Translations under genes and position numbers: made by a program
The notes under the pieces: generated by a model
Seen by the model: only the letters and a program-made list of their open reading frames with translations
The model's database searches: none
What the model was told of the DNA's origin: nothing
NCBI GenBank assembly: GCA_050084515.1
Contig: CM114271.1
Coordinates: 49,476,001 to 49,540,000, forward strand
DNA: 64,000 bases
Direction: 5' to 3'
From: Blasia pusilla
Taxonomy: Eukaryota
In this document: in pieces, positions 17,867-64,000 of the stretch
How the letters are laid out: every line of letters begins with the position of its first letter
Numbering within the stretch: the first letter of the stretch is position 1

Positions 17867-18789
17867 ATATGTCCAAACTTGTCTGTCCATGTCCGTCCTA
17901 AAGAAGGACTTATCCGTTTTTGGTCAACCATGCCGTGGACTTATGTCTGTCTTATGGAAGGACGTATCCGTGTGGGCCTCACCTTTCCCTTCTTTCTCAT
18001 TCCCCTTCGTGTTCCATACTCCCCCATTTCTTCCTCCCTCCACCTCCATTCCCTCCTCCCTCATTGCTCCTCTCATCCTTGCCTTGCCTTCCATCATGGA
18101 TTAAAATTGTGGGTCCCATCTCTTGGAACCCATGTCAGTGGATATGTCCAGACTTGTCCGTCCATGTCCTTCCTAAGGAAGGACTTTTCTGTTTTTGTGC
18201 AACCATGGTTTTAGGACTAGAGTTTACTTTCCACTTTGGAAAGTGACTCTTGACTCGTTACAAGAGGTCAAGAGCCAAGGAGGTGACCTACGAGCATAGC
18301 TTGCAATAGTAGGAGTTTGGGAGAGGGAAAGGGTTATACCCAAGGAGGGAGAGAGCTTTGGAGATAATTCTCTCTTACTTAAACCTCTTGGCATAAGATG
18401 GTAGAGCTACCTCAGTGCCTTGTGAGTAATCCAAGTCTCTCATTAGGAGAGTGGATTTGGTTTGACATAAGAGAGTCTAAGATGGAGTTTGTGTACACAT
18501 TGTGAGACATCTGGAATACTTATGATTTATTGGACATATTTTAATTTGATATATACTCTATCGTCTTGATGTTTATTTAGATGCCATGAGCTAGTATGGA
18601 ATCTTGTATGTTTGTGTGTATGACAATGATATATGTTTTGTAGCAATGTATATGCACACAACAAGAGGAAAGGGCTCCTTGCTAGTCTAAAATTGAGGTC
18701 TTCCATAGTACTAAGATCTTTCCTCTAAAGTACTCCTCACTTCGCTCTTGATATCAAATCTCTTATACAAAGTAGTTGAAGAATTTGAG

Positions 18790-39200: not shown

Positions 39201-41170
39201 CCGAGAGTCTCCCACACGCCTCACTAGCTCACCTATGCGAACATCAATCCCGTGATGACACACCCGGCCTCACGCACGCTCAACACTCGGCCTTACCATG
39301 AGCCTCCCAACTGACTCACCTAACCTAGCGACACTCTCTCGGTTCATACACGCGACCCCTACTCGGCAACCGCCGTATATCCACCAACATGCTACACATG
39401 ACAAGAATCTACACTCGTCACCATCATTGCACCCATCTAGCACCAGCTAATACCCGATACCCAGCACTCTCAATCACACACGACAAGTGCGGGAAAAGGG
39501 ACTCGAATGGGTAACCTGATCACACCCTCCAACCAGCTGCACCGTCAATATGCACTCCTCCACATGATATGACAATCTCCGCCACATAACACTCCCCTCG
39601 ACCAACACGTCGATCCTCCCGTCAATAGATGCGGACAACCCGTCGGCATCATGCACACTGCCCCTCCAACGTAAACTCTCGCAACGCCCTATGCGCGCCT
39701 CAAAACAACATGTCACGCCTGCTGCCCAACTTGTCGATCACTCAGCACGTCGACATCCTCCCTGCCCTCACGTTGCCCATGCGCACCGCGTTCGCCGGAC
39801 CGACCTCGTCCGTCCTACCACGTTCGCTCGATTGTCGGCCGCCCGTCGGTGCTACCACGCCGGAAAGAGGGGGAAGAACTTGGGCCCGCGGCCCTATCGC
39901 CCCCTTGGGCCCTAAATGCGCGGGGGCGGCTCGCGCCCTGGGGCCCTAAATGCAAAGGGGAAGGCCCGCCCACGGCCCTATGCGGGCCTTAAGCGCAGGG
40001 GAGGGGGCGCTGTCGCGTGTTTTGCGGTCCGCCCAGCCGCTCCGCCACGCGCCCGCCACGCGCTTGCCGCCGTCCGCCCGCGCCCGCCCCGTCCACCGTC
40101 CGCGCCCTGCCGTCCGCCGTCCGCCGTCCGTGCCCTAACTCTAGCCGCCTTTACTTGACAGCCCCCCGGCGGCTGCAAGACCCAACTTGCCCATTCCTTC
40201 TCTTTCGACGCCTTCACTTGCGTACACCCGACGCCCCACCACACGCTACACTTTTGCTTTGTCCCCAACAATCTGCACCAGCAAAATCTGAGAAAAACGG
40301 ACAGCGCTTCCGCCCACGGCCTTCCAAACATGAAAATGACACAAAATGACACACACACATCTCCAGGGGCTCCCCAACCGAGGCAACTCGCTTGCCTACC
40401 TGCAAACAACAAATTCCCACCAGCCCCCTGACATCTTTCTCATGTAAAAATAAAGAGTAGCAAAAACGGCACACCCGGCCTAAAACTCCACTCCTCAATC
40501 TACATCGGCATATCGAGCCTCGTCCACCTTGTGCTATCAAGGAATCTGGACGCTAGCACCCTAGTCCTAGCTCACACACATACAAGGGAGGTGCTCCAAC
40601 GGCCCAACATGAGAAAGATGGCTTAGGAAAGCCATCTTCCTCTCTTATATAGGTTGGGAAGAGCCACAAGGCTCAAACCCCAAAAATAGCCCTTCCCTTG
40701 GTAACCTGCGCGCACAGGTTACCAGGGGCAGGTGACCTGGTCAACAAGTCACCCGGTTGTAAAAGACCTCAACATGAAAGTCGTCAAAAATGACGTTCCT
40801 GACACAATGGACCTATCCTCAACCTCATCCGACATTGTGGGACAAAGTTACACTCAAGATAGTCCGCTGGCTCCTACGCCCTATCCACGATAGATCTCGG
40901 CCTATCGGCTACTCATATGTGACAACATCGATTTGTCCCAGCCCCTAGCCATAGAGATGTATGGGGCTATGGGGAAGAGGTTTGAATCGTTCCTTACATA
41001 TTACACCCATCATCGATCTCCAATCGTGAACTGGGCTATCATTAGCTACTACGATTCTCTACTATAGACAACGAGTCTCTACATCTTTGCAATGTGCCCA
41101 AGCCGGTAGGATTTTGTGGAAGACGCCAACATTAGGGGCCCGCTTAGTCATAGTCATATCTCTCTAGCTA

Positions 41171-41323: not shown

Positions 41324-41821
41324 TATCACATCTTGGTTTGCCGACAAGTAGAGTGCTACCACGTGGATGGCATAGAGGGTTAGCATACGGTTTGGGTGTA
41401 ACTTCTTCTTGATATGTCAGATGAGGTTGATGACTAGTCCATTACGTCAAGAACATCATTTATAGCCAATTCCCTTCTTTGCTATTTCTGGCCATATGAC
41501 CCTTTGACCAAGTCAACGGTCACCCACTAACCTATGCTTGTAGGTTACCATTTAGGGGCTATTTTAGGAGCACCTATCTTGCTTGTGTATGTAGGAACTA
41601 GGGTGCTAGTATCTAAGTGTCCGGATTCCCTCATAGCATAGGGTGGATGTGACTTGATATGTCGCTGTAGATTCAAGAGTGGATTTTTAGGCCATGTGAG
41701 CCGTTTCTACTCTAATTTTACATGAGTAAGATCCACTCGTATGTTGGGAAGATCAATGTTGTGTGGTGAGGATGAGACCAATGATGTGTGTATTGTGTAG
41801 TCGATGTGTATGCACACGAAA
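41324..41821 (+). mobile_element. Diverged solo L-S unit of the E2 subfamily (inverted relative to E2)
   Basis: 41324-41726 aligns with the reverse complement of E2 L (gtgtaactt; tgtc.gatgaggttga; ggagcacct; ctagggtgctag; ccgttt..ctactct). 41727-41821 aligns with E2 S (gggaagatc..tgttgtgtggtg; gatgtgtatgcacacga). The TATA/primer segment is deleted. Confidence 0.8.
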
Positions 41822-43429: not shown

Positions 43430-43809
43430 TGTCATGACCATACAGATTATGTCGTAGAATATAGTGTGCTAGTAGAGGCCATACCTTATGTAGGGCCGCA
43501 GTGTCTAGGTAGAGATGCGATTTCATACATAGGGTTGGGGTTACTCAATTGAGGGTGAGTTTTCCAGTAGGGCCCGCTCTTAGGTTGGAGGATATAAAGT
43601 GGAGTGCACTCAAAGAAGTGTCAGTTCTTTGAGTTGAGCCTGTTGCGTTGGGAGTTAGCCTTGGTAGTGAGTAGAGCTCTTGGCTATGGTGTTTCCCGCA
43701 AGCTTCGACCTAGATTCTCCCATCGTGGAGTGGGTTTGGCTTGATTGTATGTGATTCTATACGTGTTTTATGACAAAAGGTCTTTCCCGGATTTCACTCA
43801 AAGAACTGA
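43430..43809 (+). promoter_or_regulatory. E3 5' L segment: TATA (43593-43598), initiator-like TCAGTT (43621-43626), self-complementary PBS (43796-43809)
   Basis: TATAAA lies 30 nt upstream of the A in TCAGT. tcagttctttgagt (43621-43634) is the exact reverse complement of actcaaagaactga (43796-43809). Confidence 0.75.
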
Positions 43810-46800
43810 TGTAGATCGATGGTAGCTTCGGTTGTGGATCAGTAGGATCTGGTTAGGGCTAATTGTGTACTCAACTGTGGATATTCGTGGCTTGTGGCCT
43901 ATGTTGGAGGTGTGAATCTGGTGCGTGGTTGGTTGGGAAAGAAGCGCCTTGCTGAGAGCTTTCCAACGCGCTTTAGATCGCCGGATTTCGTCAAGGGAGT
44001 TGGAAGTTATCAAGGATTGAAGATTCTGGTTCGTGTTCGACGGTTTTCTGATGTGGAGAGCTTGGAGTGCGGAAGCTTTGTTGAAGTTCATCCAGATCGG
44101 GTGAGAGATTCTTGTTGCTACTTGTATTGTGATCTCATGTGAAGCTATCTGCTTGAGTGTGTGGAGCGTTGCGGATTTTTGCGTGCATGAAATTGGGCGG
44201 AAGCGCTGTCGGATTTGCGATTCTTGAGGTGTATGGACAGCAAGTTTGTCTGATTTTTAGCTCGGAGTACAGAGCTTGGTTGTAGCTAATTTTTTGTGGA
44301 GAGATAGCTATGGTGGTTAATTGAATTTTGGTTGAAACAGATTTGATTTTGGTCACGGATTTGTGAAGTAATTTTTTATCCAAATTTGGCTATGGTGGAC
44401 AGCGGATCGGAGGGGCTGGTTGGTTGGTGACTCGTTCATTGTTAGAGACGCCTATCCCATTGGGGACGCCCTGGTTGGGCCTCTCTCCATAGCAAAGCAT
44501 GGCAAACGGGGCGATAGGGGCATGTCTCGAGGCTTCGAGGCAACTCGTGGTAGCTCGGGGCGAGTGGGCGTGAGAGGCGGAGTAAGGAGCAAGGAGCAAG
44601 CAAGCAAGCTTGCTTGCTTGGGCGTGAGGCAGATTTTGCAGGATTTGTGATTTGAGTGTTGCATAACTGGTCACCCATCTTTGGGGTATTCTGCCTGGAG
44701 GACGCTTAACTACTGAGTTCTTAACTATGCCAGTGTACATACTGGTGTAGCTCATTTGGTGTTGTTCGGAGATGTGTTAGGCGCTTTATGCATCTCAAGT
44801 TTTTGGTTGATGTATCTCTAGCGCATAGTTAGGTGTAACCTTTTCATGCAGGTGATATTTTCAGGTGCTGCGAGTCCGACTAGCACGTCATCGACCCGCG
44901 GCGGAGTAGCTTTTGCGTTAGAATTGTGTGGTGGGTTTTGTAGATTCAAGGGGCGCCACGTTTGGTGGATTGTGTTACCTTGATTTCCATTTGCGATTGG
45001 AGGATTGTCGTTGGACTTCCTGTGTTTGGATCCCCTCCATCGTTGCTTCTTGCTTGCGCGCCCATTGTTAGGGTTGACGCTGATTTCCAGAGTAGTGTTA
45101 CTCCTGTGTGCTACCGGTAGTGAGGCTGGAGTGATGACCAATAGACCGTGGGAGGATTCTTGTGGTGATGACAGGTTAGGAGTGTTGCAGCTCCATTGAT
45201 TTGGGACATGGACGGGATATATGGGGCCATGAAGGGCCCACGACGATACTCGGGTGTAGTGGGCACCATTGAGTTGGAGGACTTCATGCAGGAGTTTGAT
45301 ACGTGGTGTGATATGCAGATGTTGCGGAACGCCACGTTGTTTACACCCTTCTTGGCTTGGAAGGGGTTGTTTTAGCACTTGGAGGGACCACCCATGGATG
45401 ATTACCATGAGTTTAGGAAGGACCACGTTGCTGAGATTGAGGCATGGAGACAATATTGGTCTCCAGGCTATGTGTCTATCACCCATGGTGGTATTGGTAG
45501 TAGTGCTCCTACTATGCCAGCCAGCCCGACGTTGAGTGGTACGAGTACGAGTCGGAGTGGGGGTATCAGTGGAGGTACCAGTGGAGGTACTAGTGGAGGT
45601 ACTAGTGCCCCACCATCGTTTAGCCCGGTTGCCGAGTTCTTCAAGAGGTTGAAGAAGAACTATCAGGGAGTGAAGACAGAGAAGTTGAGGAGTCTTCAAG
45701 AATTTGAGCGAAAGACTGGTGAGAGTCTTCGTGAGGCATACACTCGTATCCGACGCTTGATTTGATTACCCAGTGTGGACCGAGGCTCACGCATGATCGA
45801 TTTTGGTATGGGATCTTGGGCAGAGAGTTGCGCGCAGGTACGTGATGCTACTCTTATGAGTGATGATTCACCCACATTGACCCATGTGTTTGCTCTATTT
45901 GAGAAGATTGAGCTTAACATGGTGAAGGAGAGAGTGGTGACATCCGCATTCAAGAGGGGATACAACTACTACTTCGTGTTCAAAGCAGCCCACATCACAG
46001 TCTCGTAGTAGTGGTGGTGGTAGTAGTAGTGGGAGTCGTGGGGGTACACACGACCTCGATCAGTCCTAGAGGGACACTTGCGCAGAGACCATTGCCTTCA
46101 TTTGCTGCCCCCCAGCAAGGGGATCATGTTGGACATGTGGAGGTGATCATGTTAGGAAGTTTTGTCCCCAAGAGGATGGAAGACGGACTTTGGAGGATGG
46201 GCCTCGATCGGCCCCAACTCGGTGTGATCATTGCGGGAGACCAGGTCATCCTCGAGCGTTGCTTTGATCTTCATCCAAAGTTGAGATCAGGCCGCGGCCG
46301 TGGTGGAGTAGCTCCGAGAGGCCGAGGTGGTAGGGGTGGTAGAGGTGGATCAGTGGTTGGAGAGCCTACGTTGGCCATCCCTACCACTACGACAAGTCAA
46401 CTATGGTGTCGAGGATTGAGCGATTGGAGAGGTTGGCTACTATGGTGATATCTAGCATAGATCAGGTTCGGGAGCAGGGCTTCCACCTCTTATGGAGGGA
46501 TGATCTCTCTTATATGGCGAGTGCAAAAAGACAAGGTTGAGGCATCAAGCTGCGATACGAGAGGAGCCACTCGAGCGTCAGAGCCACGTGGTGCTACTGT
46601 GGAGTTGGACCCATAGAGAGGTGAGGCTGGGAGGCAGGCTAGGCTTCCCGAGTCATTCTTATTGTCTGAGGTGCTTAGGACTCCATCCATGGTTCCTACG
46701 CAGCCTATTGAGCCGACATTGGGGACTGAGGCATCTACATCGCGTCTAGTAGACACGGATCGACTTCAGTGCAAAGATGTGCGGATGGCAACTTCAGTGT

Positions 46801-47849
46801 TGGGATCCCCATTGTTTTCGGCCACGGAGTTGATGGCTTTAGGAGTTGACTTAGCTCATGTATTTCAGCTAGCAGCCAGGTTGTGTGAACATGGGGGTGT
46901 TAGTGCTACACGTGCTGAGGTGGATGAGGGTGTTGCAGTGGAGCGACCCTCTATGTCAAGTGTAGCATTGAGTACCAGTGCTACTTGGCAGGTAGCAGCG
47001 GCAAAGATGGATGCATTACCAACCCGGCCAGCCATTGATCGTGAGAGGCTTACACCTGGTGTATGTATGTTGGACAACCGGAGTGGAATATTCCGATTGG
47101 TGAGTCCTACAGGAAAGGTGTATAGACCAGATAGAGTCTTGTTAGACTCTGGTGCCCAACCTTTGACGTTGGGAAAGGCGTCATGTATTGGTTTGGGTAT
47201 TCGAAGGTCAGAGCTTGAGCCTTGCCCATTCCAGATTCAAACATCATTTGGAGGAGCCAATGATAGGTCTCAATTCATGACACGGGAGAAGTTTTCTGTA
47301 CAGTTGAGACCAGATCATGCGACTCATAGCTCCCGGTTGGGAGTACCTGCAGTGGTCACATCAGCCGAGTCGTATGATGTACTAGTTGGAGGAGCAGTAT
47401 TGTACCCGATGGGTTTTCAGATGGATTACTAAACTGAGACAGCGTCTTATAGACCTGGTTGGCAGTCTGGGGATGGACGTATGAGCCAAGTTCCTGTGAG
47501 ATTTATTTATGGGGCTCGACCAGGAGGGTCTTTCCCAACGGTATTAGCATCTGTGGCTGGTTTTAGTGGAGTAGTCACTTGGCCATGAGACTTTTGGGAG
47601 GGTAATGTTTCCGCTATGGATTCTCCTGTGCATGAGGAGGTAGAGGAGGTCCCTATTTTTGCAGCAATGGCATCCTCATCGTTGGATGTGCCACTTTGGA
47701 GTTCAGGAGGTGCACTACGGCAGGAGGCTTGGTGTGAGGCTGTTATACCTCACGAGGAAGAGGACGCCCCATGGCGGACTCCTACTTCTGGTCCAGTTGG
47801 GTTATCCCCTTTGGATACTACACCCATTGTATGGCAGTATGCGTCGGAG

Positions 47850-48790
47850 GGCATTTGTGTGTTAGATCTCTTTGGTGGGATTAGCAGTGGTTTGGCTGCA
47901 ATGTTGCAGACCAGTATTCTTGTGCGGAGATACGTGTATGTGGAGCGGGATGAGACGGCCCAGAGAGTCTCATCCCGACATATTGGTCAGTTGATGCGGA
48001 GATATCCTGAGTTGTTGCCGCCATCAGCTATTCGTGGGTACCGACGTGCTTTGTCCTCACACATTGCATTGTTGGGGGCGCAGGACCTTGAGAAGGTTGG
48101 TCCTGTGGATTTGGTGATTGCTGGATGGCCATGTCAGGGTCATACACGTGCTGGTCGTGGTGAGGGATTACATGACCCTAGGTCTCGATTGTTTTGGGAG
48201 ATGTTACGGGTGTTACGACATCTTCAGGTTCATCAGGCACGTGCTCCAGCTTACATTCTGGAGAATGTTCCATTGTTGGATGACACTCGGACCCGGATGA
48301 TGGCGAGTGTTCATGAGGTGCGGTCTTGGATTGGACCAGCGGTGTTATTGGATGCAGCGCGAGTTGGCTCGCGTGCACATTGTCCACGCTTGTGGTGGAC
48401 AAACTTGTTGCCTAAGGAGGTTCTACGTCGAGTGCAGCGGGATCCTTGCCTTACAATGGATAGTATCTTGGATACTAGGCGACTTTCTCAAGTGGTGAGG
48501 GTTATTGATCGGTCACCCATGGCAGTGGTGAACCGTGTGGGCCAGCCTAGGATGGCACTACCCACATTTGTGAGTTTTCCCTCGTCACATGCATACAGGG
48601 AAGGTGGTCCGGGCTTGTATGGGATTCTCATGTGCGAAAATTGGTGGAGCCTAACGCTGATGAGAGAGAGCGTGCGATGGGATTTGCTACTAGTGTGACA
48701 GCAGTTGCTTCCATTTCTGAGGCTTCACGACGTCATGTGTTGGGTCAGGCCATGGACCTGAATTGTTTGACTTGGATTTTGAGTCTTGGT
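47850..48790 (+). pseudogene. DNMT3-like C5 cytosine methyltransferase domain of E3 (best-preserved copy)
   Basis: ICVLDLFGGISSG (I), YVERD (II), DLVIAGWPCQG (IV, catalytic Cys), GLHDPRSRLFWE, YILENVP (VI), DAARVGSRAHCPRLWWTNL (VIII), ERERAMGF (IX), SEASRRHVLGQAMD (X). One frameshift near 48620. Confidence 0.95.
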
Positions 48791-51656
48791 ATGGCCGAGC
48801 AGCGTCGACTTCGGACTATGTGTGTGGGTCTTCCACCCCTTGTAATGAGCTTGATGGCTACCGGGACGATAGAGGCATCGGCTGGGGGCGAGGAGAGTAG
48901 TATTTTGCATCCTTAGAGTAAATGGGATGTAATGGCTGGGCATGTGGAGTTGGTTGCTCATGCTGGTGGAGGAGTTATTTGCTCAGATGATGGTGTAGCT
49001 AAGGGTGTACCATTTTGTGAGGGGGTTGCGTAGCAGCCAATGGCATCGTCCTCTCCCTCTAGTGTGCCAGTGAAGGAGACTTGGGAGCCATTTCTTGGGC
49101 CCAAGCTTACGGGAGGTGAGAAACGACGCTTGACACAGTTCCTACGTGCTTATAGGAGTTGTTTTGCCTTTAGCATGAAGGAGTTGGGTTCTCTGGTTGG
49201 ACCTAGTATACGGATTGATTTGGCTAGTCATACGCCAATCTTCCGTCGTCCCTACCGATATAGCGATATGGAGAGGGACCTGATTCAGAGTAGGACGTTG
49301 GACCTTTTGGAGGCTGGATTAGTGGAGTTATCGCATGGAGAGTATGCATCAGCCACTGTCATGCCTGCTAAAAAGGATATGCATGGCAACTACACGGATA
49401 GGCGGATGTGTGGAGATTACCATCCTATCAATCGGCAAACCAAGGCCGATAGGTATGCCATGCCTACATCTGAGGAGATCTTTGATGTGGTGGAACATGC
49501 AAAGATTTTCAGTACTTTGGATCTTCGGGCATGATACCATCAATTGCCGATTCGGGAGAATGACAAGGCCAAGACAGCATTTTGGGGTGTCAACTCTCAT
49601 GGCAAGGATTTTTTGTACCAGTGGAAATTCTTACCCTTTGGGTTGAAGAATGCACTTGCCGAGTTTCAGAGAGTGATGGACAGGATCCTAGCAGGATTGG
49701 ATTTTGTTTGGTGTTACATTGATGATATCTTGGTGTTGATAACACGGTGGAGGAGCATCGAGATACATTTGCAGATGGTGTTTGAGCGGTTGAAAGCTCA
49801 TGGTCTATGTTTGCATCCAGGAAAGTGTAAGTTCTTCCATGAGGATGTTGAGTACTTGGGTCATGTGATCTATCCAAGTGGTTTGGGAGTTCAGAAAGCA
49901 AAGGTGGAGACTATTGCACTTATTCCGCGTCCGGTAGATGTGAGTAGAGTTCGAGCATTCATGGGATTGGCGAACTACTATCAGAGGTATGTGAAGGGAT
50001 TTAGTGCTATGGCAAAGCCTTTGAACCAATTGCTGAAATCAGATCAAGAGTGGTATTGGGGAGATGATCAGGAGAGAGCTTTTGTGGAGCTTAAGGCCAA
50101 GTTGGTGGCGGCGCCTATCTTGAGGAGACCTATCAGAGGGCGCCCATTTCAGTTACACACTAATTGGAGTAGGTTGGGACTTGGAGCGGTGTTGACACAA
50201 CATGATGATGAGCACATGGAGTTTGTGGTGGCCTATCCAAGTCGTTCGAATAATGCAGGATAGTCGCGCTATAGTTCATATGAGGGAGAGTGCTTGGCAG
50301 TAGTGTGGGATGTGGCACACTTTAGGTGTTACTTGTTTGGCACACAGTTTACCCTTGTTACTAATCACCAGCCGCTCAAGTGGTTGATGGAGTCTGACAA
50401 GCTTACAGGGAAGCTTGCACGGTGGGCTCTTATCTTACAGAAGTATGACTTCCATGTGGTACATAGACCTGGAGTTGCCAACCTTGATGTTGATGGGTTG
50501 AGTAGGAACCCATGTACTAGCCAAGAGGATACAACTGGGGCTAGATGGCATGGCGAGGTTGATGAGGAGATGGTGCCAGGTTGGCATGCATCCGCCTTTT
50601 TATGTTGGTTAGGGATGGACTCTAGTATGGAGGACCACATGATATCTTACTCTAGTCAGAGGGTAGATGGCCAGCCTTCAGATCCTAAGGTTGGAGATGG
50701 TGGTACGGATCAGCGTGATATTCATGATGATGCGTTGGTATTGGAGTTCCTACGGACCAGTAGGGTGCCAGGCATAGTGAGTGCCAAGGAGCGAGACCGT
50801 ATTCTTCAACGTGCTAAGAGGTATCGATTGGAGGGAACACATATTCTCTGTGTGTGGGAGGATGGTAGAGTATGAGTAGTGCCGCATTTGGCTCAGAGAG
50901 AGCGCATTGTGCGACATGCCCATGAGGAGTTGGGACATTTTGGGGTAAAGCGTACGTATAGCTTACTCCTTGGTCAGTATTGGTGGCGTGGCATGCATAC
51001 TCAAGTGCAGCAGTTGGTGTCATGTTGTATGGTTTGTGACCGGGTGAGGGCATCATTCAATGCCCCTACACCACAGTTACACCCCTTGCCTATTATGGGG
51101 TTGGGTTACCGTTGGAGTGTGGACTTTGCGGGACCGTTACCGTTGACTGTACGACATGATCGATATGTTTTGGTGATGGTGGATCACTTCTCCAAGTGGA
51201 TTGAGTTGGTGGCATTACCTGACAAGGCAAGTGAGGGAACGGCGTATGCGTTTCTTGACAGAGTGCTTAGTCATTTTGGTGCACGGTGAAGTCTTGACCG
51301 ACCAATGTCTGAGTTTTGGTGAGTTTTGGTCTTGTGTGACAAGGCGTTGATTGATCATCGGACCACATCTCGAGATCATCCGAGGCGGATGGTTTGGCTG
51401 AGCGTGTGGTTCGGGAGCGGTGAAGAGGGCATTGCGCAAGTATGGCCTCTGAAGGGCATCTTGAGACCAGGATATTCAGTTGCCATGGTTAGCCATGGGG
51501 TATAGGTTCAGTCGCCAAGTATCCTTGGCTTCCTTCTCACCTTATTTTTTGTTATACTGCCGAGATCCAAACTTGCCAGCAACAATTCATTGGGAGTCTA
51601 GTGAGGTGGTGAATCTTGATGACCCAGAGATGTGGATGAGAGTGTGTTCTCAGCGG

Positions 51657-52932
51657 TGTCGTATAGTAAAATCAACTAGTGTGTAAACTCCTTCGTCATT
51701 AAGTGTTAGATAGAGTTTCATTAGTATTAAGTAAATTGGCTTAGAAAAAGGAGATTCTTATGTTTAAACCTCTTTATGGTGCCTCTTTTATGCGGGCCCA
51801 ACTTTAGGAAAAGGAGGTAATAAATAAAATATGACTTTATAAAAGTAAAGTAGTTGCTTTAATGAAAAGCAAAAGTAGTCTTGGTTGGTGGCTAGGTTAG
51901 TTGGGGTAATTTGGAAAATATCATGTGGGTAAAAGAGGATATTTTGGAAGAGATAAGAGGAAATCTACTTGTGTCAAAATGTGATTGGCTAAGCCTTGAG
52001 AGGAAGCCATGTGGCACAAGATAAGATAAGCTTTATTTCGTACTCTTGTGGATCCCTTGTGAGTATATAAAGAGGAGGGACCTTCAAGGGTTCATCACTT
52101 TCTATTCCACATCTTGAGTCTCTCGTGTCTCTCTTGAGTGTATGGCTTTGGGATTGCTTGCTTTTCCAATGAGAGTGGATCACCCCTCTTGGGAGAGTAA
52201 CTTGATCATGGTCTATTCTTCGAGAGGTTTCTAGAGTGTGGTGTATGTGTGTGGGGGGGATGAGAGGTTTGTCACCGTAGAGGAGTTTAGTCATACTAAA
52301 ATAGCGGATGTTTTGGCTTGTTACTTTCCCAATGAGAGTGGATTACCCCTCTTGGGAGAATAATTCCGCCAAAACCCATTCTTGAGGAGAGTAGAGAATG
52401 TCTGTCAAGCATGGATAGGGGTGGAGCACGAGCTATGCCCGACTTTCCTTTCCTCAATCCTTACCATGTCAAGGTACTCTTTGTAGATAGGCACTGGTTC
52501 ACTCGCTATTTAGTTTATCACTTTGGGGAGGCGTTCATGAACCAGGTCATGCAATCTCCAACTCCGGTGATTCTTCCTATCGTCACATATGGAAGGACAT
52601 GGGATTGTACTTTGTATGTCCTTATATAGCAATCCATGGATGTCAATAGGTCTGGTCAAGTAGGGTTTAACACTAGTTGTGCTATCTTCCTCGTGTACAA
52701 ACGTAAAATAGTTTATAGGGATTTTATAGTTAGGAATTTCGGGGTCCGATGTTACGAAGAAGTGATCGCCTCGGCACTTCCATTTGTGATACCTGTCGTG
52801 AGAGAATGGAGAGTGTACATCATAATTTTGTATTGAAAAAGGAGAACTTATTAGAGAGTTCACCTTGCATCGACCGCATCTACCGCAGCTAGAAGGCCCA
52901 CCCTTGCTCGAAGAAAGATTCTCGACGCGACA
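51657..52932 (+). mobile_element. 1276-bp solo-LTR-like insertion of a different family inside the E3 integrase
   Basis: TGTC...GACA ends. It interrupts the codons CSQR|AEL, leaving gcgg/acgg (4-bp TSD, 1 mismatch). TATATAAA at ~52064. Internal repeat ccaatgagagtggat.acccctcttgggaga at ~52166 and ~52329. No recognisable coding content. Confidence 0.85.
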
Positions 52933-53290
52933 ACGGGCAGAGCTCTTTCGGAGAGTTATGCCAACAGCCTTTGAGAATCTTGCCATTGCTCAACACAGGG
53001 ATACGTTGCGGTATGCAACCATTCGGGGTGGAGGTTATCGACCATCGATTCGTAGGTTCCATGTGGGGGACTATGTCTATTTGCAGCAGATTTCACCGAC
53101 AACGTTGGATGTGACGGCATGTCGCACTATTTTACAAGTGCGCGAGGTGTTAGCTTCTGGAGTTCTCATGTTGGAGGGTCGTGATGGAGTTGTTTGGAAG
53201 GACTATGTGCGTAATTATGCGCCATGTCATCCTCCAAATGTGGATGGTACTGTTGACCCAAGCTTAGCCATGATACGTGCTAGCTTGAGG

Positions 53291-53428
53291 TGCATGTTGT
53301 GTGGGTCTGCTGGTAACGCAGCCCATATGTTGGTGTGTGATCGGTGTTCTAGGGGTTGGCACATGATGTGTTTGACTCCACGTATGGATGTTGTTCCTAT
53401 TGGAAGGTGGGTTTGTCCCCGATGTACT
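53291..53428 (+). other. PHD finger at the integrase C-terminus of E3
   Basis: CMLCGSAGNAAHMLVCDRCSRGWHMMCLTPRMDVVPIGRWVCPRC. Confidence 0.93.
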
Positions 53429-53603
53429 TAGGAGAGGTAGATGACTTGATCTTTGCATGATATGGATTACAGATGTGCGACTAACGATGGGGCAACCTAG
53501 CACCTGGCCTTTCTGATTCGTGCACCCAAGAAGGTGTATAGCATATAGTAGATGTATAGGGCTACCTAGGAGTTAGAGGGACCTAACCGCCAGTTAGGGG
53601 GGC

Positions 53604-54160
53604 GAGTTGTGGAACACTTGTGTTTGTGGATGCTCTCGTCTATGTTATGTATGTATGTGAGTATGGTATGTCAGCGATGTATGTTGTATGACGATGTGGA
53701 TTTGCACGACAGCTGTCATGACCATACGGATTATGTCGTAGAGTATAGTGTGCTAGTAGAGGCCATACCTTATGTAGGGCCGCAGTCTCTAGGTAGAGAT
53801 GCGATTTCATACATAGGGTTGGGGTTACTCACTTGAGGGTGAGTTTTCTAGTAGGGCCCGCTCTTAGGTTGGAGGATATAAGGTGGAGTGCACTCAAAGA
53901 AGAGTCAGTTCTTTGAGTTGAGCCTATTGCGTTGGGAGTTAGCCTTGGTAGTGAGTAGAGCTCTTGGCTATGGTGTTTCCCGCAAGCTTCGACCTAGATT
54001 CTCCCATCGTGGAGTGGGTTTGGCTCGATTGTATATGATTCTATACGTGTTTTATGACAGTAGGTCTTTCACGGATTTTAGTTGTGGTACACTTGTGTTT
54101 GTGGATGCTCTCGTCTATGTTATGTATGTATGTTGTATGACGATGTGGATTCGCACGACA
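53604..54160 (+). repeat. E3 3' terminal block S1-gc-L2-S2
   Basis: S1 53604-53711, junction cacgaca-gc-tgtcatg, L2 53714-54078 matches L1, S2 54079-54160 carries a short internal deletion between tgtatgt repeats. Confidence 0.95.
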
Positions 54161-55133: not shown

Positions 55134-55989
55134 TGTCACGACTGTTAGGATAGATCGGTGGGATCTAGCAGAACGTCTGCACGAGTAGTGGAGGACATGC
55201 CCAAGAGGTCAAGGATGACCTGTTGAGGCCCCAGGAAACCATTTCGGCTCATTTGGAGCCATATAGAGAAACTTGCTATTTCAGGTAAGTTTCCATGTTA
55301 GAGATAGTTGACTTTCTACTTTGGGAAGTGGCCCTTGATCCGCTATAGTAGGTCAAGAGCCAAGGAGGTGACCTGCGAGAATAGGTTACCGTTGAGAGGG
55401 CTTGGGAGAGGGAAGGGGATATACCTCAAGGAGAGAGAGCTTGAGAGCTCATTCTCTCTTTGTTGAACCTCTTGGCATAAGGCGGCGGAGCTATGGTCCC
55501 TTGCCTTGTGAGTGTAACCCAAGCCTCTCATTAGGAGAGTGGGTTTGATTTGACATGAGAGAGAGTGCACACCTTTGAGAGCTATGGTGTGAGATGGTGT
55601 AGAGAGAGATTGGATCTAACTTTACAAAGAGAGAATGAGATAATGAGAGAGCTTCATGGGGGAACTCGTTGGTCACTCGTTGTTTTTGTAGGTTGGGGAC
55701 CGTGTTCCCCATTCAGCTGCTCATGGGAGTGCTCACCAGAGCAAGGGCTGCTTTGATTGTTCTTTGCATTTGCCGATTTTTCCGTGTGTAAGAGTAGCGC
55801 GGAAGCGCTCCCCAATTTCTCATAGGGATTGATTATGGGGATAGGTTGCCCCATGCCGGTGCTCTCTGGAGCACCATGAAGCTTGCTGATTTGTATTTTT
55901 ATAGGTTTTACATTTTCATTGGGAGAAACCAGCGCGGAAGCGCTGCCAAATTTTGTGTAGGAGAAAGAGACATTGGGCTTTACGATCGC

Positions 55990-58900
55990 CTAGCAATGGC
56001 AGTTTTGCTTGGTTGCCCAGATGGAGGTCGCCACAGTTATGACGCATGGAGCAGCCACAGAGTTGGATCCAGAGTGAGGGGAAGCCAGAAAACATACTAG
56101 GCTTCCTCAATCTTTCACGTTGTCGAAGCGACGAGGACCCCATCGATGGGTCCTCATCAAAGTCCCTGGAGAGTTGGTGATGTTGTTGGTGTGCAGGCAC
56201 GGAGGGCAATGGGAGAAGTGAGTGTAACGACTCCTATTGTTGATGCTCAAGAGGGGCATGTGTCGAGCACCTTATTGGGGGCGGCCACCGTTGTGTACCA
56301 CACTCCTTTATTTTCTGCTTTCCGATGTTATGACGTTGGGGGGTACGCCCGCCGAGGCTTTTCGGCTGGCCGCTTCACTATGTGAGCGCGGAGTTGGAGT
56401 TCCTGCATCACGTTCAGAGGTGATTGCAGAGGAGGTGATGGACTTGCCCTTGGAGCGGATGCTTGGGCCGTCCACGTCAGATTCATGGCAAGCTATGGTA
56501 GCTAGGATGGCGGAGATGCCTGCTAGACCCGCGATAGAGCGTGCCATGGCTTCTCCTGGTGTTGTGTTGCTCGATAAGCAAGGAGAGGTCTTCCAGTTGG
56601 TGAGTCCCTTAGATAGAGCTTTTAGTCCGCAACACGTCTTTTTGGATTCAGGAGCGCAACCCCTGATGTTGGGGAAAGCGTCATTCAGAGGATTGGGCTT
56701 GACGAGAGCCGATGTGGAGCGTTTTCCATTCCGGATATAGACATCCTTGGGTGGAGCGAGTACCACATAATATATCACCCAACATGAGGTCGTGATGAGG
56801 ATTCGCTTGGGACATCCTATAGATGAGTCCGTGATGCGAGCCAAGGCGATAGTGACTGATGCAGAGTCCTACAACGTCTTGGTTGGTGGAGCAGTGTTAT
56901 ATCCGATGGGGTTTTCCCTGGATTACGGGGAGGAGTCAGCATCCTACAGACCAGGATGGCACTCAGGTGATGGGCGCCTTAGCTCATTACCCGTTCGATT
57001 CACAGGTGCAGTGATCGAGCGACGAGTAGGAGAGGTGGCGACCTTATCAGCATTTAGCAGTGCCATCACTTGGCCTAGTAATTTGATTGAGGGACATGTC
57101 CATGCAGAGGATACTCCTGTTCCTGACATTTCTATGGAGAGGAGTGTTATGGTAGTCGCATCATTCCATGGAAGAGAGATGTCATTGTGGGGCTCGATTG
57201 AGGAGCTTCGACGATTGGCAGATGAGCACGTGCAAACCACGTGGAGCGAGGCGTTTGCACCGGAGCATGATGGGTCTGAGGAACCCGAGGTAGCAGGGAG
57301 TGCTACGATAACACCCTTGGATACCACACCCACTGTGTGGTGTATCGCGGAGGAGGGTATTCGAGTGTTAGATCTCTTTGGAGGGATTAGCACTGGGTTA
57401 GCTATTGTTTTGCAGGCAGGAGTGCTAGTGCAGCTGTACCTGTATGTGGAGAGTGATGATGTTGCGAGGCGCGTCTCACTATGACATGTGGTGCAGTTAC
57501 GCCTATGTTTTCCCAACTTATTGTGTGCGTCCGCGATACAGGGGTACCAGAGTTCCCTACTGAGGGATATTTCGTTTTTGGGGGCGCAGGACTTAGAGCG
57601 GGTAGGGACCATTGATTTGGTCATTTCCGGTTGGCCATGTGAGGGTCAATCGAGTGTTGGACAAGGCAGCGGGTTGGCTGACACTCGGTCCAGGTTTATT
57701 TGGGAGATGTTGAGGGTCTCACGGCAGTTACAAGAGCACCAATCTCGTTCTCCAGCCTACATTCTGGAGAATGTGCCGATCTTAGGAGACTCCATGTCAT
57801 GGATGGTGACAAGTCTTCATTAGGTGCGTGCCTAGATCGGCCTAGCAGTGTTCTTGGATGCATCAAGTGTAGGTTCTAGAGCCCATCACCCACGTCTATG
57901 ATGGACCATTTTGGTGCCCCATGCGGTGTTACGGAGGGCGTATGCGAGAGTGGAGCGCCCATCCCATTTGTTAGTGGATTCCATTGTGGATCCAGGTTGT
58001 CAATCACAGGCAGTGAGGCACGATGATCGACCACCGTTGACTGTGGTCAACAGGGTAGGCAGGCCGCAGGCAGCCTTGCCCATATTTGTGAGTTTTCTTG
58101 CTTCCTATGCATACAAGGAGGCCGGTCTTGGCTTGGTTTGGGATGACTAGGTTCAGCGGTTGGTGGAGCCCAACGCCGACAAGAGAGAGCGAGCGATGGG
58201 ATTTCCCACAGGAGTGATGGCAGTATCGTCAGTGTTAGAGGCATCACAACGACATGTCTTGGGTCAGGCGATGGGACGTGAATTGCTTGACATGGATCCT
58301 CATCTTGGGAGTGGATGAGCAGCGTCGTATGACATCGCGTCAGATCATAGCGGTTGCGTTGGTGAGCCCCATGCCTACCAAGACGGTGGAGCCAGTGGCT
58401 GGGGGCGAGACCCGAGGAGATCTACACACTATGGGAGATTGGGAGAGACATCCTTGGACTTCTTGGGATGTTTTGCAGGTACGCCAAGAGATGATAGCCA
58501 CAGCATCGAGTGTGGTTCCGGGCACTGCATATAGAGGACATCAGAGTTTGCAGTTGGCTGCAAGAGAGCGGCCGAGTGTAGTTGTTCGAGACGAGGTTGC
58601 ACCATAGCAACCATCGATACCCGCGCCGGAGAGTCCTACCGTAGTCACAATGGAGACTTGGGAGCCAGATATGGGCCCTAAGTTGACAGGAGGAGAGCCG
58701 CGCCGGATACATCAATTCCTCATGAGTTAAAGGAGTTGCTTTGCATTTAGCATGGAGGATGTGGGTACGCTGAAGGGACCGGGGATCCGCATTGAGTTGT
58801 CGAGTGATACGCCGATCTTTCGACGACCCTACAGGTACAGTGATTTGGAGAGCGCTCTGATTCAGAGTAGGAGCCAGGACTTGGTCAGAGCAGGACTAGT

Positions 58901-61701
58901 GGAGATGTCGCATGGGGAGTATGCATCTACTACTTTCATGCCCGCCAAGAAGGATGTGCATGTCAACTGGACGGATAGGATGTGGGGATTACCAACCTAT
59001 CAATCGGCAGACGAAGTCCAATAGGTATGCCATGCCCACCCCTGAGGAGATCTTTGATGCAATTGGTCACGCAAAGGTCTTCAGTTCATTGGATTTGCGA
59101 GCCGGATACCATCAGACTGCCTATAAGAATAGAGGACAGGCTAAAGCCCGCATTTTGGGGCATCGATCCTTCGGAAGGATTGTTTGCACCAGTGGCGGTT
59201 CTTACCATTTGGATTCAAGAACGCTCGGCTGAGTTTCAAAGGGTGATGGATAGGATCTAGGCTCGTGTGGATTTTGCTAGGTGTTATATTGATGACATCG
59301 TAGTCTTTAGCACCAAGGTTGAGGAGCATGAGCGACATCTAGAGGAGGTATTTCGACAATTGCAATTGCATGGGCTAAAGCTACATCCAGGCAAGTGCAA
59401 GTTCTTCTACGACCAGATTGATTACTTGGATCATACGATATACCTAGGGGGCCTTGGTGTTCAGCAGACGAAGGTAGAGGCTATCTCACGCATTCCACGC
59501 CCTATAGATGTGAGCCGTATTCGCGCATTAATGGGATTGGCAACTTCTATCGGCGGTACGTCAAGGGATTCAGTTCGATTGCAAAGCCGCTAACCTTGCT
59601 GACCAAGGTGGATCATGAGTGGCACTGGAGGGATGAGCAGGAGCAAGCATTTCACTTGCTCAAGGACAGGTTGACGTCCGCGCCCATCTTGAGGAGACCG
59701 ATCAGGGGGCGTCCTTTCCAGTTGCACACAGATTGGAGCATGTTGGGGCTTGGAGAGGTGCTCACCCAGCATGATGATGAGGGTAGAGAGTTCGTGGTGG
59801 CTTATGCTAGCCGCTCAAACAACACTAGAGAGGCGAAGTACAATTCGTATGAGGGTGAGTGCTTGGCCACAGTGTGGGTTTCACGCATTTCAGGTGTTAC
59901 TTATTCGACAACCCCTTTACCATCATCATTGATCATCAACCACTGAAGTGGTTGATGGAGTCCGACAAGCTTACAAGGAAGCTTGCGAGATAGGCTCTGT
60001 TGTTGCAGGAGTATGATTTTTAGGTGGTACATAGACTTGGGATGCTCAATGAGGATGCGGATGGGTTGAGTCGTAACCCATACCCGAGTCAGCAAGATGC
60101 GTCTAGAGCTCAATGGCATGGAGAGAGTGATGAGGAGTCAGTGCCAGGATGGCACGCATCAGCCTATTTAGGCATGTTGGCTATGGAGAGCCAGAGTGTG
60201 GACACTTTGATGGCGAGGTCTAGTAGAGAGTGCTTGGATCGCGAGGCCAGTGAGCAAATGACAGGTGGCCAAGATATTCATGATGATGGAGTAGTCTTGG
60301 AGTACCTTCGTACTGGCAGCGTTGCAAGCACCGTGGGTGCTAGAGAGCGGGATCGGATCCTACATCGGGCCAGACGGTTCCGTTGGGAGGAGACACATAT
60401 TTTGAGGGTTTGTGAGGATGGTAGAGTACGCGTAGTGCCACATCCTTCATAGAGAGCACAACTAGTGCAGCATGCCCACAAGGAGTTGGGTCACTTTGGG
60501 GTGAACTGGACGTATGGCTTGCTCCAGATTCAGTATTGGTGGCGAGGCATGCAGACTGACGTTCAGCAGTTTGTTGCCAGGTGCATGGTGTATGATTGGG
60601 TCCAAGCATCATTCAATTATCCGACTCCACAGTTGCATCCATTACCGATCATGGGCTTAGGGTATAGATGAAGTTTGGATTTTGCAGGACCTTTGCCTTT
60701 GACGTAGCGTCACAGTCGTTATGTGTTGGTGATGGTCAAGCACTTCTCGAAGTGGATCGAGTTGGTTGCATTGCCTGAAAAAGCAAGTGAGGGAGTAGCT
60801 TATGCCTTCCTTGATAGAGTGCTAAGTCATTATGGCGCACCAGTTGAGGTGTTGATAGACCAGGGTACCAAGTTTCGCCCTGTGTGATCAGGCGCTGATT
60901 GACCACCGCACGACTTCGCGAGATCATCCCGAGCCGGATGGATTAGCGGAGAGAGTTGTGCAGACGGTGAAGAGGGGTTTATGCAAGTATGGCTTGCAGA
61001 GAGGTCACCTAGGAGATTGGGACCTCCAGTTGCCGTGGTTGGCGATGGGATACAGATTCACCAGATAGGCATCCTTAGCGTCTTTTTCACCGTACTTGCT
61101 ACTTTATGGTCGAGAGCCAGATTTACTTATGGCCATTCGTCGAAATATTGGTGAGGTGTTGGATCTTGATGACCCAAATATATGGATTCCAGCAGGTTCT
61201 TAGAGGGCTGAGTTTTTTTGGAGAGTGATGCCCATTGCGTTTAAGAACTTGGCGATTGCGCAGCATCGAGATATGTTGAGGTATGCGACTATTCGGGGTG
61301 GTGGTTATCGACCAACTATTTGGAGGTTTCATTAGGGAGATTATTTCTACTTGCAGTAGACTGCACCGACGACCTTGGATGTGAATGCAGGGCGCACTAT
61401 CTTGAGAGTGCGTGACGTTTTGCCATCCGATGTTCTCTTGCTGGAGAGATGCGAAGGTATGGTATGGAAAGACCATGTGCATAATTGTACGCCATGTCAC
61501 CTTCCTAACATTGATGGTACAATAGATCCAAGCTCAGCAATAGTTCTTGCAGGCTTGCGTTGTATGTTGTGTGGTTCTGCTCATGGTGCGGCCACGATGC
61601 TAGTCTGTGATGGATGTTCGAGAGGTTGACATATGGCATGTCTGACGCCACCTCTCACTAGGGTTCCTCAGAGACGATGGATGTGTCCAAGATGTACATA
61701 G
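55990..61701 (+). pseudogene. E4 pol polyprotein (PR-DNMT-RT-RH-IN-PHD) with many premature stops
   Basis: 56237- (FLDSGAQP), 56792- (IRVLDLFGG), 57488- (ISGWPCEG; YILENVP) and 57911- are all in one frame. RT 58752-59593 (YIDD), RNase H 59596-, integrase 60465-61500, PHD 61561-61698. Confidence 0.93.
57355..58305 (+). pseudogene. DNMT3-like methyltransferase domain of E4
   Basis: IRVLDLFGGISTG, YVESD, DLVISGWPCEG, YILENVP, AHHPRL*WT, ERERAMGF, RHVLGQAM. Confidence 0.9.
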
Positions 61702-61890
61702 AGGAGATACTAGGTAGGTTTCGATTTCGACTTTTTCTGTGACATCGATGGTAGGAAGAAGACTAAGGATGGGGCCACATGAGCACCTGACCTTTCTGCT
61801 CTTAGCGTCCTAGAGATGTATGTCGCGCTAGGTAGGGATAGATGGCTATCTGGAGTTAGACGGACCTAACCACCAGCTAGGGGGGGGGGC

Positions 61891-62662
61891 GATTGGAGAT
61901 ATTTTGGTATTTCTCGCCTTTGTGTATGGATGCCATGAGTTAGCATGGAATCGTCTGTGTTTTTGTGTGTGTTCGATGACAGCAATGTATGTTGTGTAGC
62001 GATGTGTATGCGTACGACAATTGTCACGACTGTTAGGATGGATCGGTGGGATCTAGCTGAGCGTCTGCATGAGTAGCGGAGGACACGCCTAGGAGGTCAA
62101 GGATGACCTGTTGAGGCCCTGAGAAACCTGAGAGAGCAGGTTTCCCCTTCGTTTCGGCTCATTTGGAGCCATATAGAGAAATTTTCAATTTCATGTAAGT
62201 TTATATATTAGGAATAGTTGACTTTCCACTTTGGGAAGTGACCCTTGACCCGCTACAGCAGGTCAAGAGCCAAGGATGTGACCAACGAGCATAGGTTACG
62301 GTTGAGAGGGCTTGGGAGAGGGAAGGGGATATACCTCAAGGAGAGAGAGCTTGAGAGCTCATTCTCTCTTTGTTGAACCTCTTGGCATAAGGCGGCGGAG
62401 CTATGGTCCCTTGCCTTGTGAGTGTAACCCAAGTCTATCATTAGGAGAGTGGGTTTGGTTTGACATGAGAGAGAGTGCACACCTTTGAGAGCTATGGTGT
62501 GAGATGGTGTAGAAAGATATTGGATCTTTCTTTAATTGGAGATATTTTGGTACTTCTTGCCTCTGTGTATGGATGCCATGAGTTAGCATGGAATTGTGTG
62601 TGTTTGTCTGTGTGTTTGATCACAGCAATGTATGTTGTGTAGTGATGTGTATGCGCACGACA
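61891..62662 (+). repeat. E4 3' terminal block S1-at-L2-S2
   Basis: The 129-bp S occurs at 61891-62019 and 62534-62662. Junction tacgaca-at-tgtcacg. L2 matches 55134-55623. Confidence 0.95.
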
Positions 62663-62666
62663 CCAG

Positions 62667-64000
62667 ATACATCAATTCCGTAGGAATTATAGGAGTTGTT
62701 TTTCATTTAGCATGCATGATTTGGGTATGCTAAAGGGCACAAGGATCCATATTGAGTTGTCTAGCGACACGTTGATCTTCCGACGACCTTACAGGTACAA
62801 TGATATGGAGAGGGCTCTGATTCAGAGTAAGAGCCAAGACTTGATTGGAGCAAGATTAGTGGAGATGTCACATGGAGAGTATGCATCTACCATTGTCATA
62901 CCCGCCGAGAAGGATGTGCATGGCAACTGGACAGATACGTGGATGTGTGGAGACTACCAACCAATCAATCGGCAAACAAAGTCTGATAGGTATGTTATGT
63001 CCACTCCTGAGGAGATTTTTGATGCTATTGGGCATGCAAAGGTCTTTAGTTCATTGGATCTTTGAGCCAGAGACCATCAACTGCCTAGCAGATTGGAGGA
63101 CATGCAAAAGACGGCACTTTGGGCATTGATCCTCACAGGAAGGATTGCTTGTACCAGTGGCGTTTCTTACCATTTGTGTTAAAAAACGCTCTAGCTGAGT
63201 TTGAGAGGGTCATGGATAGGATCTTGGCGGATCTAGATTTTGCAAGGTGTTAAATTGATGACATTGTAGTCTTTAGCGCCGCGGTTAAGGAACATAAGTG
63301 TGGCGCTTGAGAAGCATGAGCGACATCTAGAAGAGGTGTTTTGACGATTGCAGTTACATGGGTCGAAGCTACATCCAGGCAAGTGTAAGTTCTTCTACTA
63401 CCAGATTTAGTACCTTGATCATATGATATACCGAGATGGCCTTGGTGTGCAGTAGACCAAGGTAAAGGCTATTTCATGAATTCCATGCCCTACAGATGTG
63501 AGTCGAGTTCGTACATTCATGGGATTGCCAAAATTCTATCAACCATACATCAAGGGTTTCAATTCAATTGCAAAGCCTCTAATCTTGTTGACCAAGGTGG
63601 ATGACAAGTGGCAGTGGGGGGATGAGCAGGAGAGAGCATTTCAACTACTCAAGGACAAGTTGACGTCCGCATCCATATTGAGGATCAATCAGGGGACGTC
63701 TTTTGCAGTTGCACATAAATTGGAGCATTTTGGGGCTTGCAGCGGTGCTCACCCACCATGACGATGATGATAGAGAGGTCGTGGTGGCTTACGCTAATCG
63801 ATTGAACAACATTGCACAGGCAAAGTATAGCTTGTATGCAGGTAAGTGCTTGGCTACAGTATGGGCTGTTGCGCATTTCAGGTGTTATTTATTCGACATA
63901 TGGCCAAGATATTCACGAGGATGGAGTAGTCTTGGAGTATGTGTGTATTGGCAGCGTCGCAAGCACAGCGGGTGCTAGAAAGTAGGATCGAATCTTAGAG
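62667..64000 (+). mobile_element. E6 right part: degenerate RT/RNase H, running off the window end
   Basis: Continues the sequence interrupted at 55133 (compare the uninterrupted cgccggatacatcaattcc at ~58701). ORFs 62712-63065, 63498-63761 and 63703-63978 are RT/RH fragments. A further deletion at ~63898 jumps to the pre-integrase linker. Confidence 0.88.

Follow-up and report, generated by a model that had tools for sequence, protein, structure and literature searches.

Predicted self-priming in Gypsy retrotransposons with an embedded DNA methyltransferase from a 64-kb window of Blasia pusilla

The elements in the window

The stretch of DNA analysed here, called the window below, comprises 64,000 nucleotides (nt) of Blasia pusilla (assembly GCA_050084515.1, contig CM114271.1, positions 49,476,001 to 49,540,000). 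It holds five copies, E1 to E5, of one superfamily of long terminal repeat (LTR) type retrotransposons, which fall into three subfamilies (Table 1). In each copy the sequence that follows the 5' repeat, where the primer binding site (PBS) would lie, is the exact reverse complement of a site inside that same repeat, and we consider it quite likely that these elements begin minus-strand DNA synthesis from their own transcript, in the manner of the fission-yeast element Tf1, and not from a transfer RNA (tRNA). E3 and E1 are about 90-97% alike. Relatives, numbered with L below, come from metagenome contigs that were searched with the open reading frame (ORF) of the DNA methyltransferase (DNMT), which gave 44 loci. 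The layout is A1 - PBS - interior - G-rich polypurine tract (PPT) - B1 - 2 nt - A2 - B2 in E1, E3 and E4, and also in the relative L030 (1679-10805).

A Pfam scan of the E3 translations matched RVT_1, RNase H, Integrase_H2C2 and rve, and beside them the C5 DNA methyltransferase domain and the PHD finger given in Table 1; the integrase was also matched in E2. A nearly intact relative, L025 (321-6809), has Gag with zf-CCHC, DNMT, reverse transcriptase (RT), RNase H and integrase in one frame with two stops. The region C-terminal to the integrase was scanned in five relatives, and a PHD finger was matched there in four of them (L009, L030, L012, L015) and not in L007, while a chromodomain was not matched in any Pfam scan of E3 and these five relatives. 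Among the 120 homologues listed, about 41 carry PF00628, 7 carry PF00145 and none carries PF00385, and those with names come from liverworts, charophytes and some chlorophytes. The tyrosine recombinase domain PF00589 had no match in 35 scanned ORF translations, where rve and Integrase_H2C2 were matched instead, and an Atlas look-up returned generic Ty3/gypsy clusters only. Judged by these sequence matches, the elements belong to the streptophyte Gypsy-DNMT3 kind of Ty3/gypsy retrotransposons and have decayed; in their predicted domain order Gag with a zinc knuckle comes first, followed by C5 DNA methyltransferase, RT, RNase H, integrase and PHD finger.

Table 1. Coordinates of the elements and of their priming and repeat features in the window
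Feature	Position	Strand	Remarks
E3, element	43430-54160	+	
E3, upstream repeat A1 (U3-R-U5)	43430-43796	+	begins TGTCA, ends ..TTTCA; 97% identical to A2
E3, TATA box TATAAA	43593-43598	+	putative +1 (A 43623) 30 nt downstream
E3, upstream hairpin arm	43609-43618	+	copies first 10 nt of PBS; hairpin with primer 43625-43634, 10 base pairs (bp)
E3, putative self-primer site	43621-43634	+	putative RNA 5' end is A 43623
E3, putative PBS	43796-43809	+	14 nt, exact reverse complement of 43621-43634
E3, C5 DNA methyltransferase domain PF00145	47589-48698	+	beside RVT_1, RNase H, integrase
E3, PHD finger PF00628	52826-53431	+	C-terminal side of integrase
E3, PPT AGGGGGGCGA	53596-53605	+	directly before B1
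E3, downstream end	53606-54160	+	B1 53606-53711, 2-nt spacer, A2 53714-54080, B2 54081-54160
E1, element	17866-7987	-	
E1, putative self-primer site / PBS	17664-17676 / 17489-17501	-	13 nt exact; A1 is 17866-17501
E1, PPT	8579-8570		same tract, before B1
E4, element	55134-62662	+	
E4, putative self-primer site / PBS	55448-55463 / 55624-55639	+	16 nt exact; A1 is 55134-55624
E4, PPT	61880-61891		same tract, before B1
E5, element	start at 19087	+	
E5, putative self-primer site / PBS	19426-19440 / 19605-19619	+	15 nt exact; A1 is 19087-19605
E2, element	40924-31739	-	
E2, putative self-primer site / PBS	40607-40620 / 40432-40445	-	14 nt exact; A1 is 40924-40445
E2, PPT	31885-31876		same tract, before B1
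Solo A-B remnant, E2 type	41415-41821	+	A end, then CATGAGTAAGAT, then 3' ~90 nt of B

Pairing between the repeat and the primer binding site

The complementarity begins at offset 0, i.e. with the A that ends the 5' repeat, in all five copies of the window, and the distance from the site to the PBS is 175-179 nt across the three subfamilies. The sequences that pair differ from one subfamily to the next (..CAGTTCTTTGAGT, ..TCATTCTCTCTTTGT and CATCTTTCTCATGT). In E4, A2 as well as A1 has the terminal A. The effective PBS therefore probably lacks this base and starts with the next one, which in E3 would be C 43797, the terminal A then belonging to the repeat. None of the three PBS types starts with TGG, and TGG is absent within about 24 nt after the 5' repeat in E3, E4 and E2. 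The first-pass annotation of this DNA had listed the five pairs, had noticed that no TGG-type PBS follows the repeat and had stated that the primer differs among the subfamilies while the pairing is kept. The pairs turned out to be exact reverse complements at their coordinates, and the other two statements hold as well; positions 0-12, counted from the junction, are Watson-Crick paired in all five copies, and positions 2-7 and 9-13 have changed on both sides between subfamilies.

When each 5' repeat was shuffled 2000 times per copy, not one of the shuffles attained the pairing length of the copy in question, the shuffle maxima being 11-12. The whole 64 kb contains seven exact inverted pairs of at least 12 nt that lie 100-300 nt apart, and five of them are the primer/PBS pairs; block shuffles of the window averaged 0.46 such pairs and never gave more than 2. 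For the analysis of covariation 12 sequences were aligned over a helix of 13 pairs, in which 97.4% of the cells are paired and 10 of the 13 pairs have changes on both sides. The combined pairing and covariation of this alignment was matched by none of 500 shuffles, and the pairing falls to 33-49% when the partner is slid by 1-3 columns. As judged from the alignment, the covariation is real. Unconstrained folding with RNAalifold gave a consensus helix between columns 12-27 and 215-230, which is the same as the primer/PBS duplex and has 3 bp extra across the presumed cleavage site, and in the minimum free energy fold of E3 43621-43830 the 14-bp duplex closes the R-U5 domain (z = -2.26).

The metagenome loci offer independent insertions. 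An E3-like 5' repeat together with the downstream sequence is held by 12 of the 44 loci, and by their left flanks these represent nine distinct insertions. The primer site is deleted in two of the nine (L003 and L011), and the pairing is kept in the other seven. Counted from the junction, the exact run is 17 nt in both L024 and L030 (= L029), 12 nt in L010 (= L009), 11 nt in L021 and 10 nt in L007. L018 (= L017) also has an exact run of 10 nt, which becomes 22 bp with one G·U pair, and L032 has an exact run of 1 nt, with one mismatch at position 1 and thereafter the same pairing as in L018. With G·U allowed, the runs of the relatives reach up to 21-24. The 2.7 kb upstream of the DNMT gene were scanned in 18 loci. 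Inverted pairs of at least 12 nt at this spacing turned up in four of them and were all primer/PBS pairs; L012 and L022 gave none of that length. The E4-type and E2-type repeats, compared by BLAST with the metagenome loci, gave no A-type match.

Start of the RNA and the hairpin at the primer site

Measured from the first T of a TATA-like box, the putative +1 base, the A of a TCA/CCA motif, comes 30-32 nt later in each of the 12 copies, and in 11 of them it is an A. This distance is the ordinary spacing from a TATA box to the start of transcription. Apart from that of E3 (Table 1), the box reads TATAAG in E1 and TATATAAG in E2 (40651-40644, - strand), and there is only a weak box in E4 and E5 (ATATAC / CTATAC). 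Transcription most likely starts at the A of the motif, or a few bases upstream of it.

Three stranded raw RNA runs with one species label, and one contig run, were aligned at 90% likeness. All three RNA runs have sense reads over U3, R, U5, the PBS and the leader, and the read depth drops from 43543-43683 to 43684-43824, the bins being 141 nt long. About 90-122 reads per run cross from the end of B into A, which means that the U3 reads derive from the B1-A2 context. A weak read end at 40646 (five molecules) was not taken as a start, since it adjoins an indel variant. The runs also contain an RNA joint that leads from 43747 in U5 to 43460 in U3, i.e. goes back 288, with 4, 9 and 5 reads in the three runs; a copy with a deleted A-B-A arrangement could be its source. 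Each run also has about 80-120 RNA reads piled up at 40942-40997, immediately outside the E2 repeat. The reads have loose ends on either side, and the depth is about 50-56 on the strand opposite to the E2 sense reads. The sequence of this short segment is shared with part of an abundant transcript that originates elsewhere.

Just upstream of the primer sequence each of the three subfamilies has a copy of the first 10-11 nt of the PBS, and this copy and the primer sequence form a local hairpin. Folds of 48 nt gave energies of -11.2 (E3), -15.0 (E1), -19.3 (E4), -14.0 (E5) and -22.4 kcal/mol (E2), the hairpin of E4 including G·U pairs, and two base differences in the expressed E3-type copies (43618 and 43619) give a stem of 11 bp. 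If the RNA starts at the A, the upstream arm belongs to U3, and the hairpin would then be possible only in RNA of the 3' repeat or in DNA intermediates. It is tempting to speculate that it hides the primer sequence where this occurs a second time, either in RNA of the 3' repeat or in plus-strand strong-stop DNA. An equally speculative role would concern the copy of the PBS with which plus-strand strong-stop DNA terminates, and which the hairpin might prevent from folding onto its own R; an inverted R fragment is in fact present in L021.

Repeat layout and integrated ends

The PPT is conserved across the three subfamilies, and in E1, E3, E4 and L030 the borders of the B-A unit are exact, with the tract to the left and the PBS to the right. 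At the A2/B2 junction the last base before the PBS is joined to the first base after the tract, i.e. the end of U5 to the start of U3. In the reverse transcription of LTR elements it is the plus- and minus-strand primers that set the borders of the repeat unit, and with the borders at the tract and at the PBS, minus-strand synthesis must begin where the self-complementary sequence starts. The polarity of the primer site is such that its 3' end in the RNA lies opposite the end of U5.

Integrated elements start with A (TGTCA..) and end with B (..ACGACA, which is also how E3 terminates), and perfect 4-bp target duplications are found for E3 (tgta), E4 (ccag), E2 (atgt), L030 (aagg), L009 (tgtt) and L021 (caca); the flanks of E1 (atat/atgt) have one mismatch. 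E2, L009, L012 and L015 end after B1 (A-PBS-interior-PPT-B, without A2-B2), and were either integrated in that form or have lost A2 by recombination between B1 and B2. There are also A-B remnants without an interior, at about 18221-18663 and at 41415-41821. In the second of these the stretch CATGAGTAAGAT is identical to the PBS of E2 at 12 of 13 positions, terminal A included, and the TATA and primer region is deleted; as a relic of a PBS it is ambiguous, since the B of E2 is partly similar to the same stretch. Another junction is that of L021 (same locus as L020), where the end of A is followed by a 12-nt copy of the PBS, by GCTA (compare the tract end GCGA) and by the start of B. At 12820-13715 of this locus the RT gene is interrupted by an inverted R fragment and about 500 nt of unassigned sequence, after which come R-U5, the copy of the PBS, GCTA and B. 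The element has its own target duplication despite the rearranged interior, and looks like an integrated aberrant cDNA. Provided that plus-strand synthesis runs on to the 5' end of the attached primer, the two relics imply a primer of 12-13 nt that starts at the A.

The internal B/A junction is a palindrome (..GACA NN TGTC..). A canonical linear cDNA, (B-A)-PBS-interior-tract-(B-A), could be closed to a two-LTR circle and then be reopened at this palindrome by the DDE integrase, in our view the simplest scheme, which we put forward tentatively and to which we would give slightly less than an even chance. It would explain the U5/U3 junction, the TG..CA ends and the 4-bp duplications, the forms that end after B1 and the solo A-B forms, as well as relics with a 12-13 nt copy of the primer and about 4 nt of the PPT. 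The shorter forms could result from cutting of both palindromes, from one-LTR circles or from later recombination between repeats. If true, the reopening of circles would be a mechanism for the DIRS-like repeats of Gypsy-DNMT3 elements, and a natural case of an integrase that acts on a circular substrate. That reverse transcription alone yields the A start and the B end, by priming after B or from the U3/R hairpin, was considered and rejected, as it leaves the borders at the PPT and the PBS unexplained.

Other features of the window

Long ORFs run antisense to E3 (44818-45765, - strand, 315 amino acids) and to E1 (15199-16248, + strand, 349 amino acids) at a homologous place, and neither has a Pfam match. 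On the sense strand G strongly outweighs C (skew about +0.25), and this may be why the antisense strand has few stop codons; the ORFs are probably a by-product of strand composition. Another element, truncated at its 5' side, occupies 62663-64000 and starts directly at the end of E4; its RT region is about 81% identical to E4 58703-58839, and E4 may have inserted into or beside it. Downstream of E5, at 22795-23813, a unit of about 178 bp is present in at least five tandem copies, which are 64-83% alike.

A model for priming and its alternatives

We hypothesize that the RNA starts at or near the A of the TCA/CCA motif in the upstream repeat, and that its first 12-16 nt would fold back over about 162 nt of R-U5 onto the sequence after the repeat. 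The RNase H of the element would, by analogy with Tf1, cleave the RNA where the duplex ends on its 3' side, in a GT/TG that is invariant (in E3 putatively within 43633-43636), and the freed 3'-OH, opposite the last base of U5, would be extended into U5 and R. The plus strand would in turn copy the attached primer and thereby rewrite the PBS, which would account for primer and PBS being exactly complementary and yet specific for each subfamily. Self-priming of the Tf1 type was also what the first-pass annotation had proposed, and the abutment at the junction, the polarity, the covariation, the independent insertions and the folds all agree with it, which makes it in our opinion the probable mode of priming. 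That annotation had also placed the primer site about 30 nt past a TATA-like box, which fits the position of the putative first A, with the box being weak in E4 and E5, and the proposed TCA/CCA start motifs are compatible with the TATA spacing and with the two junction relics. The PBS border that it had used for a model of permuted LTRs is sound, as the borders of the repeat unit are exactly the PPT and the PBS.

An element-derived primer might instead act in trans. In place of a fold-back and cut within one molecule, the PBS would then pair with a short RNA of the repeat, whether transcribed close to the promoter, processed from the U3/R hairpin or supplied as the 5' end of another packaged RNA. 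The stable local hairpin found at the primer in all three subfamilies could indeed be processed, the 17-24 nt of complementarity in some relatives exceed the primer length of 12-13 nt that follows from the junction relics, and no datum here separates a primer in cis from one in trans. We nevertheless think that a trans primer is unlikely, since the spacing is conserved although the sequences of the subfamilies differ, which fits an intramolecular structure, and since the duplex closes the consensus fold as such a structure would. Tf1 moreover uses the 5' segment of its own mRNA, according to PMC4600332. Pairings between U5 and the leader exist in retroviral leaders as well, and covariation fits a structural helix too, so the pairing could be nothing but a long-range RNA structure for packaging, dimerisation or control of translation, with another primer being used. 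It is hard to see, however, why such a helix would stand at offset 0 in every window copy and at the same junction in the relatives. It starts where A2 stops, so that DNA synthesis starts exactly there, no TGG primer site adjoins U5, and the junction relics hold a copy of just this sequence, all of which makes a purely structural role rather improbable.

The primer could also be a host tRNA, a half-tRNA or a tRNA fragment, and the match to the repeat secondary. Half-tRNA priming is described for plant Ty1/copia lineages (PMC6317226), but here three unrelated PBS sequences are each a perfect match to their own repeat at a homologous place, and with none of them beginning with TGG we regard tRNA priming as very improbable. 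The same low probability must be given to chance, or to a functionless by-product of a palindromic promoter region. The region of the primer is itself palindromic, and a PBS-like copy is consequently present upstream too, but this does not account for the outcome of the shuffle and window-wide controls, for the pairing kept in seven further insertions or for the compensatory change.

Several observations weigh against self-priming as outlined here. Stops and frameshifts disrupt every copy in the window, and no copy is thus demonstrably active. Behind the covariation there are only three sequence types, i.e. about two independent switches, and therefore few events. The hairpin, with its -11 to -22 kcal/mol, ties up the primer and would rival the pairing with the PBS if the RNA started upstream. 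There is no pile-up of read starts at 43621-43625 among the rows listed, in which depth is given in 141-nt bins; ordinary RNA-seq seldom reveals such a pile-up. In the five copies of the window the complementarity overshoots the proposed +1 by 1-3 nt, and in the seven relatives it extends past it by up to 5 nt exactly and by up to 10 nt with one G·U, with L010 showing no excess and L021 ending 1 nt short of +1. That is more than a fixed primer of 12-13 nt predicts, and the start of the RNA may be heterogeneous, as the pairing often reaches 1-10 nt past the proposed start in the relatives. The comparison of the PBS with tRNAs, finally, covers only the window and 20 related loci, in neither of which ARAGORN found a tRNA gene.

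Comparison with known systems

Among LTR retroelements self-priming is, to our knowledge, the one alternative to tRNA priming that has been studied well, and we know of its demonstration in fission-yeast elements only. The mechanism is known in kind, and what is added here is its prediction for the Gypsy-DNMT3 lineage, together with compensatory change and independent insertions. The primer duplex of Tf1 is about 11 nt, whereas the one described here is longer, 12-16 nt and up to 22 in relatives, and the primer is one half of a local palindrome, the other arm of which copies the PBS. The elements of the window also differ from Tf1 in having a PHD finger with the integrase, with no chromodomain detected, a DNA methyltransferase in the polyprotein and permuted A..B-A-B ends, and their cleavage and priming are predicted from sequence. 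The literature documents self-priming for Tf1 and proposes it for Tj1, Tf1/sushi elements, plant Tcn1 and TAR (PMC4600332, PMC6317226). In Tf1/Tf2 of S. pombe and Tj1 of S. japonicus the PBS after the 5' LTR pairs with the start of the element's own mRNA and there is no tRNA PBS, the 3' end of the primer stands beside U5, and the duplex lies within a larger R-U5 fold, as PMC4600332 describes; the elements of the window are predicted to agree with them in these respects.

In plants, self-priming has been predicted from sequence for chromoviruses of the Tcn1 clade, in mosses and club-mosses, and for the Ty1/copia lineage TAR, and predicted self-primers make up 12% of the elements surveyed by Neumann et al. 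2019 (PMC6317226). These are, like the elements of the window, LTR retrotransposons of the green lineage without an apparent tRNA PBS. In the part of the survey used here (PMC6317226) Tcn1 and TAR are the only ones named. The window elements differ from these in their DIRS-like repeats, in their DNMT domain and in having a PHD finger where a chromovirus has its chromodomain. With a PHD finger and no chromodomain, membership of the Tf1/sushi-Tcn1 chromoviruses is not supported on this one tested feature. The layout itself, A1 - internal - B1 A2 B2, is shared with the DIRS, Ngaro and PAT elements, from which those of the window differ by a DDE integrase (rve, Integrase_H2C2), TG..CA ends and 4-bp target duplications. 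Elements with a tyrosine recombinase are, as far as we know, without such duplications.

A published relative of the elements is KnitGypsy-Dnmt3 of Klebsormidium nitens, which has Gypsy domains and DIRS-type repeats in the order A-coding-B-A-B (de Mendoza et al. 2018, PMC5890265). It shares with the elements of the window a Gypsy-type Pol with an embedded C5 DNA methyltransferase as well as this order of the repeats, and Klebsormidium proteins are 40-45% identical among the 120 homologues listed. The repeat layout is thus already published, and its mechanism was not found in the main text of that paper, from which the words PBS, primer binding, self-priming and polypurine are all absent, the supplements being outside that check (PMC5890265). 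No priming mechanism for Gypsy-DNMT3 elements was found in the literature searched, that main text included. With the PBS and the PPT fixed, the A..B-A-B repeats appear as a permutation of an ordinary LTR, and this permuted architecture makes the route by which Gypsy-DNMT3 elements replicate and integrate testable, with the palindrome at the primer site and the junction relics as further experimental handles. Compared with KnitGypsy-Dnmt3, the elements described here come from different hosts, and it is for them that a predicted mode of priming, the borders at the PPT and the PBS, the TG..CA ends and the 4-bp duplications have been worked out.

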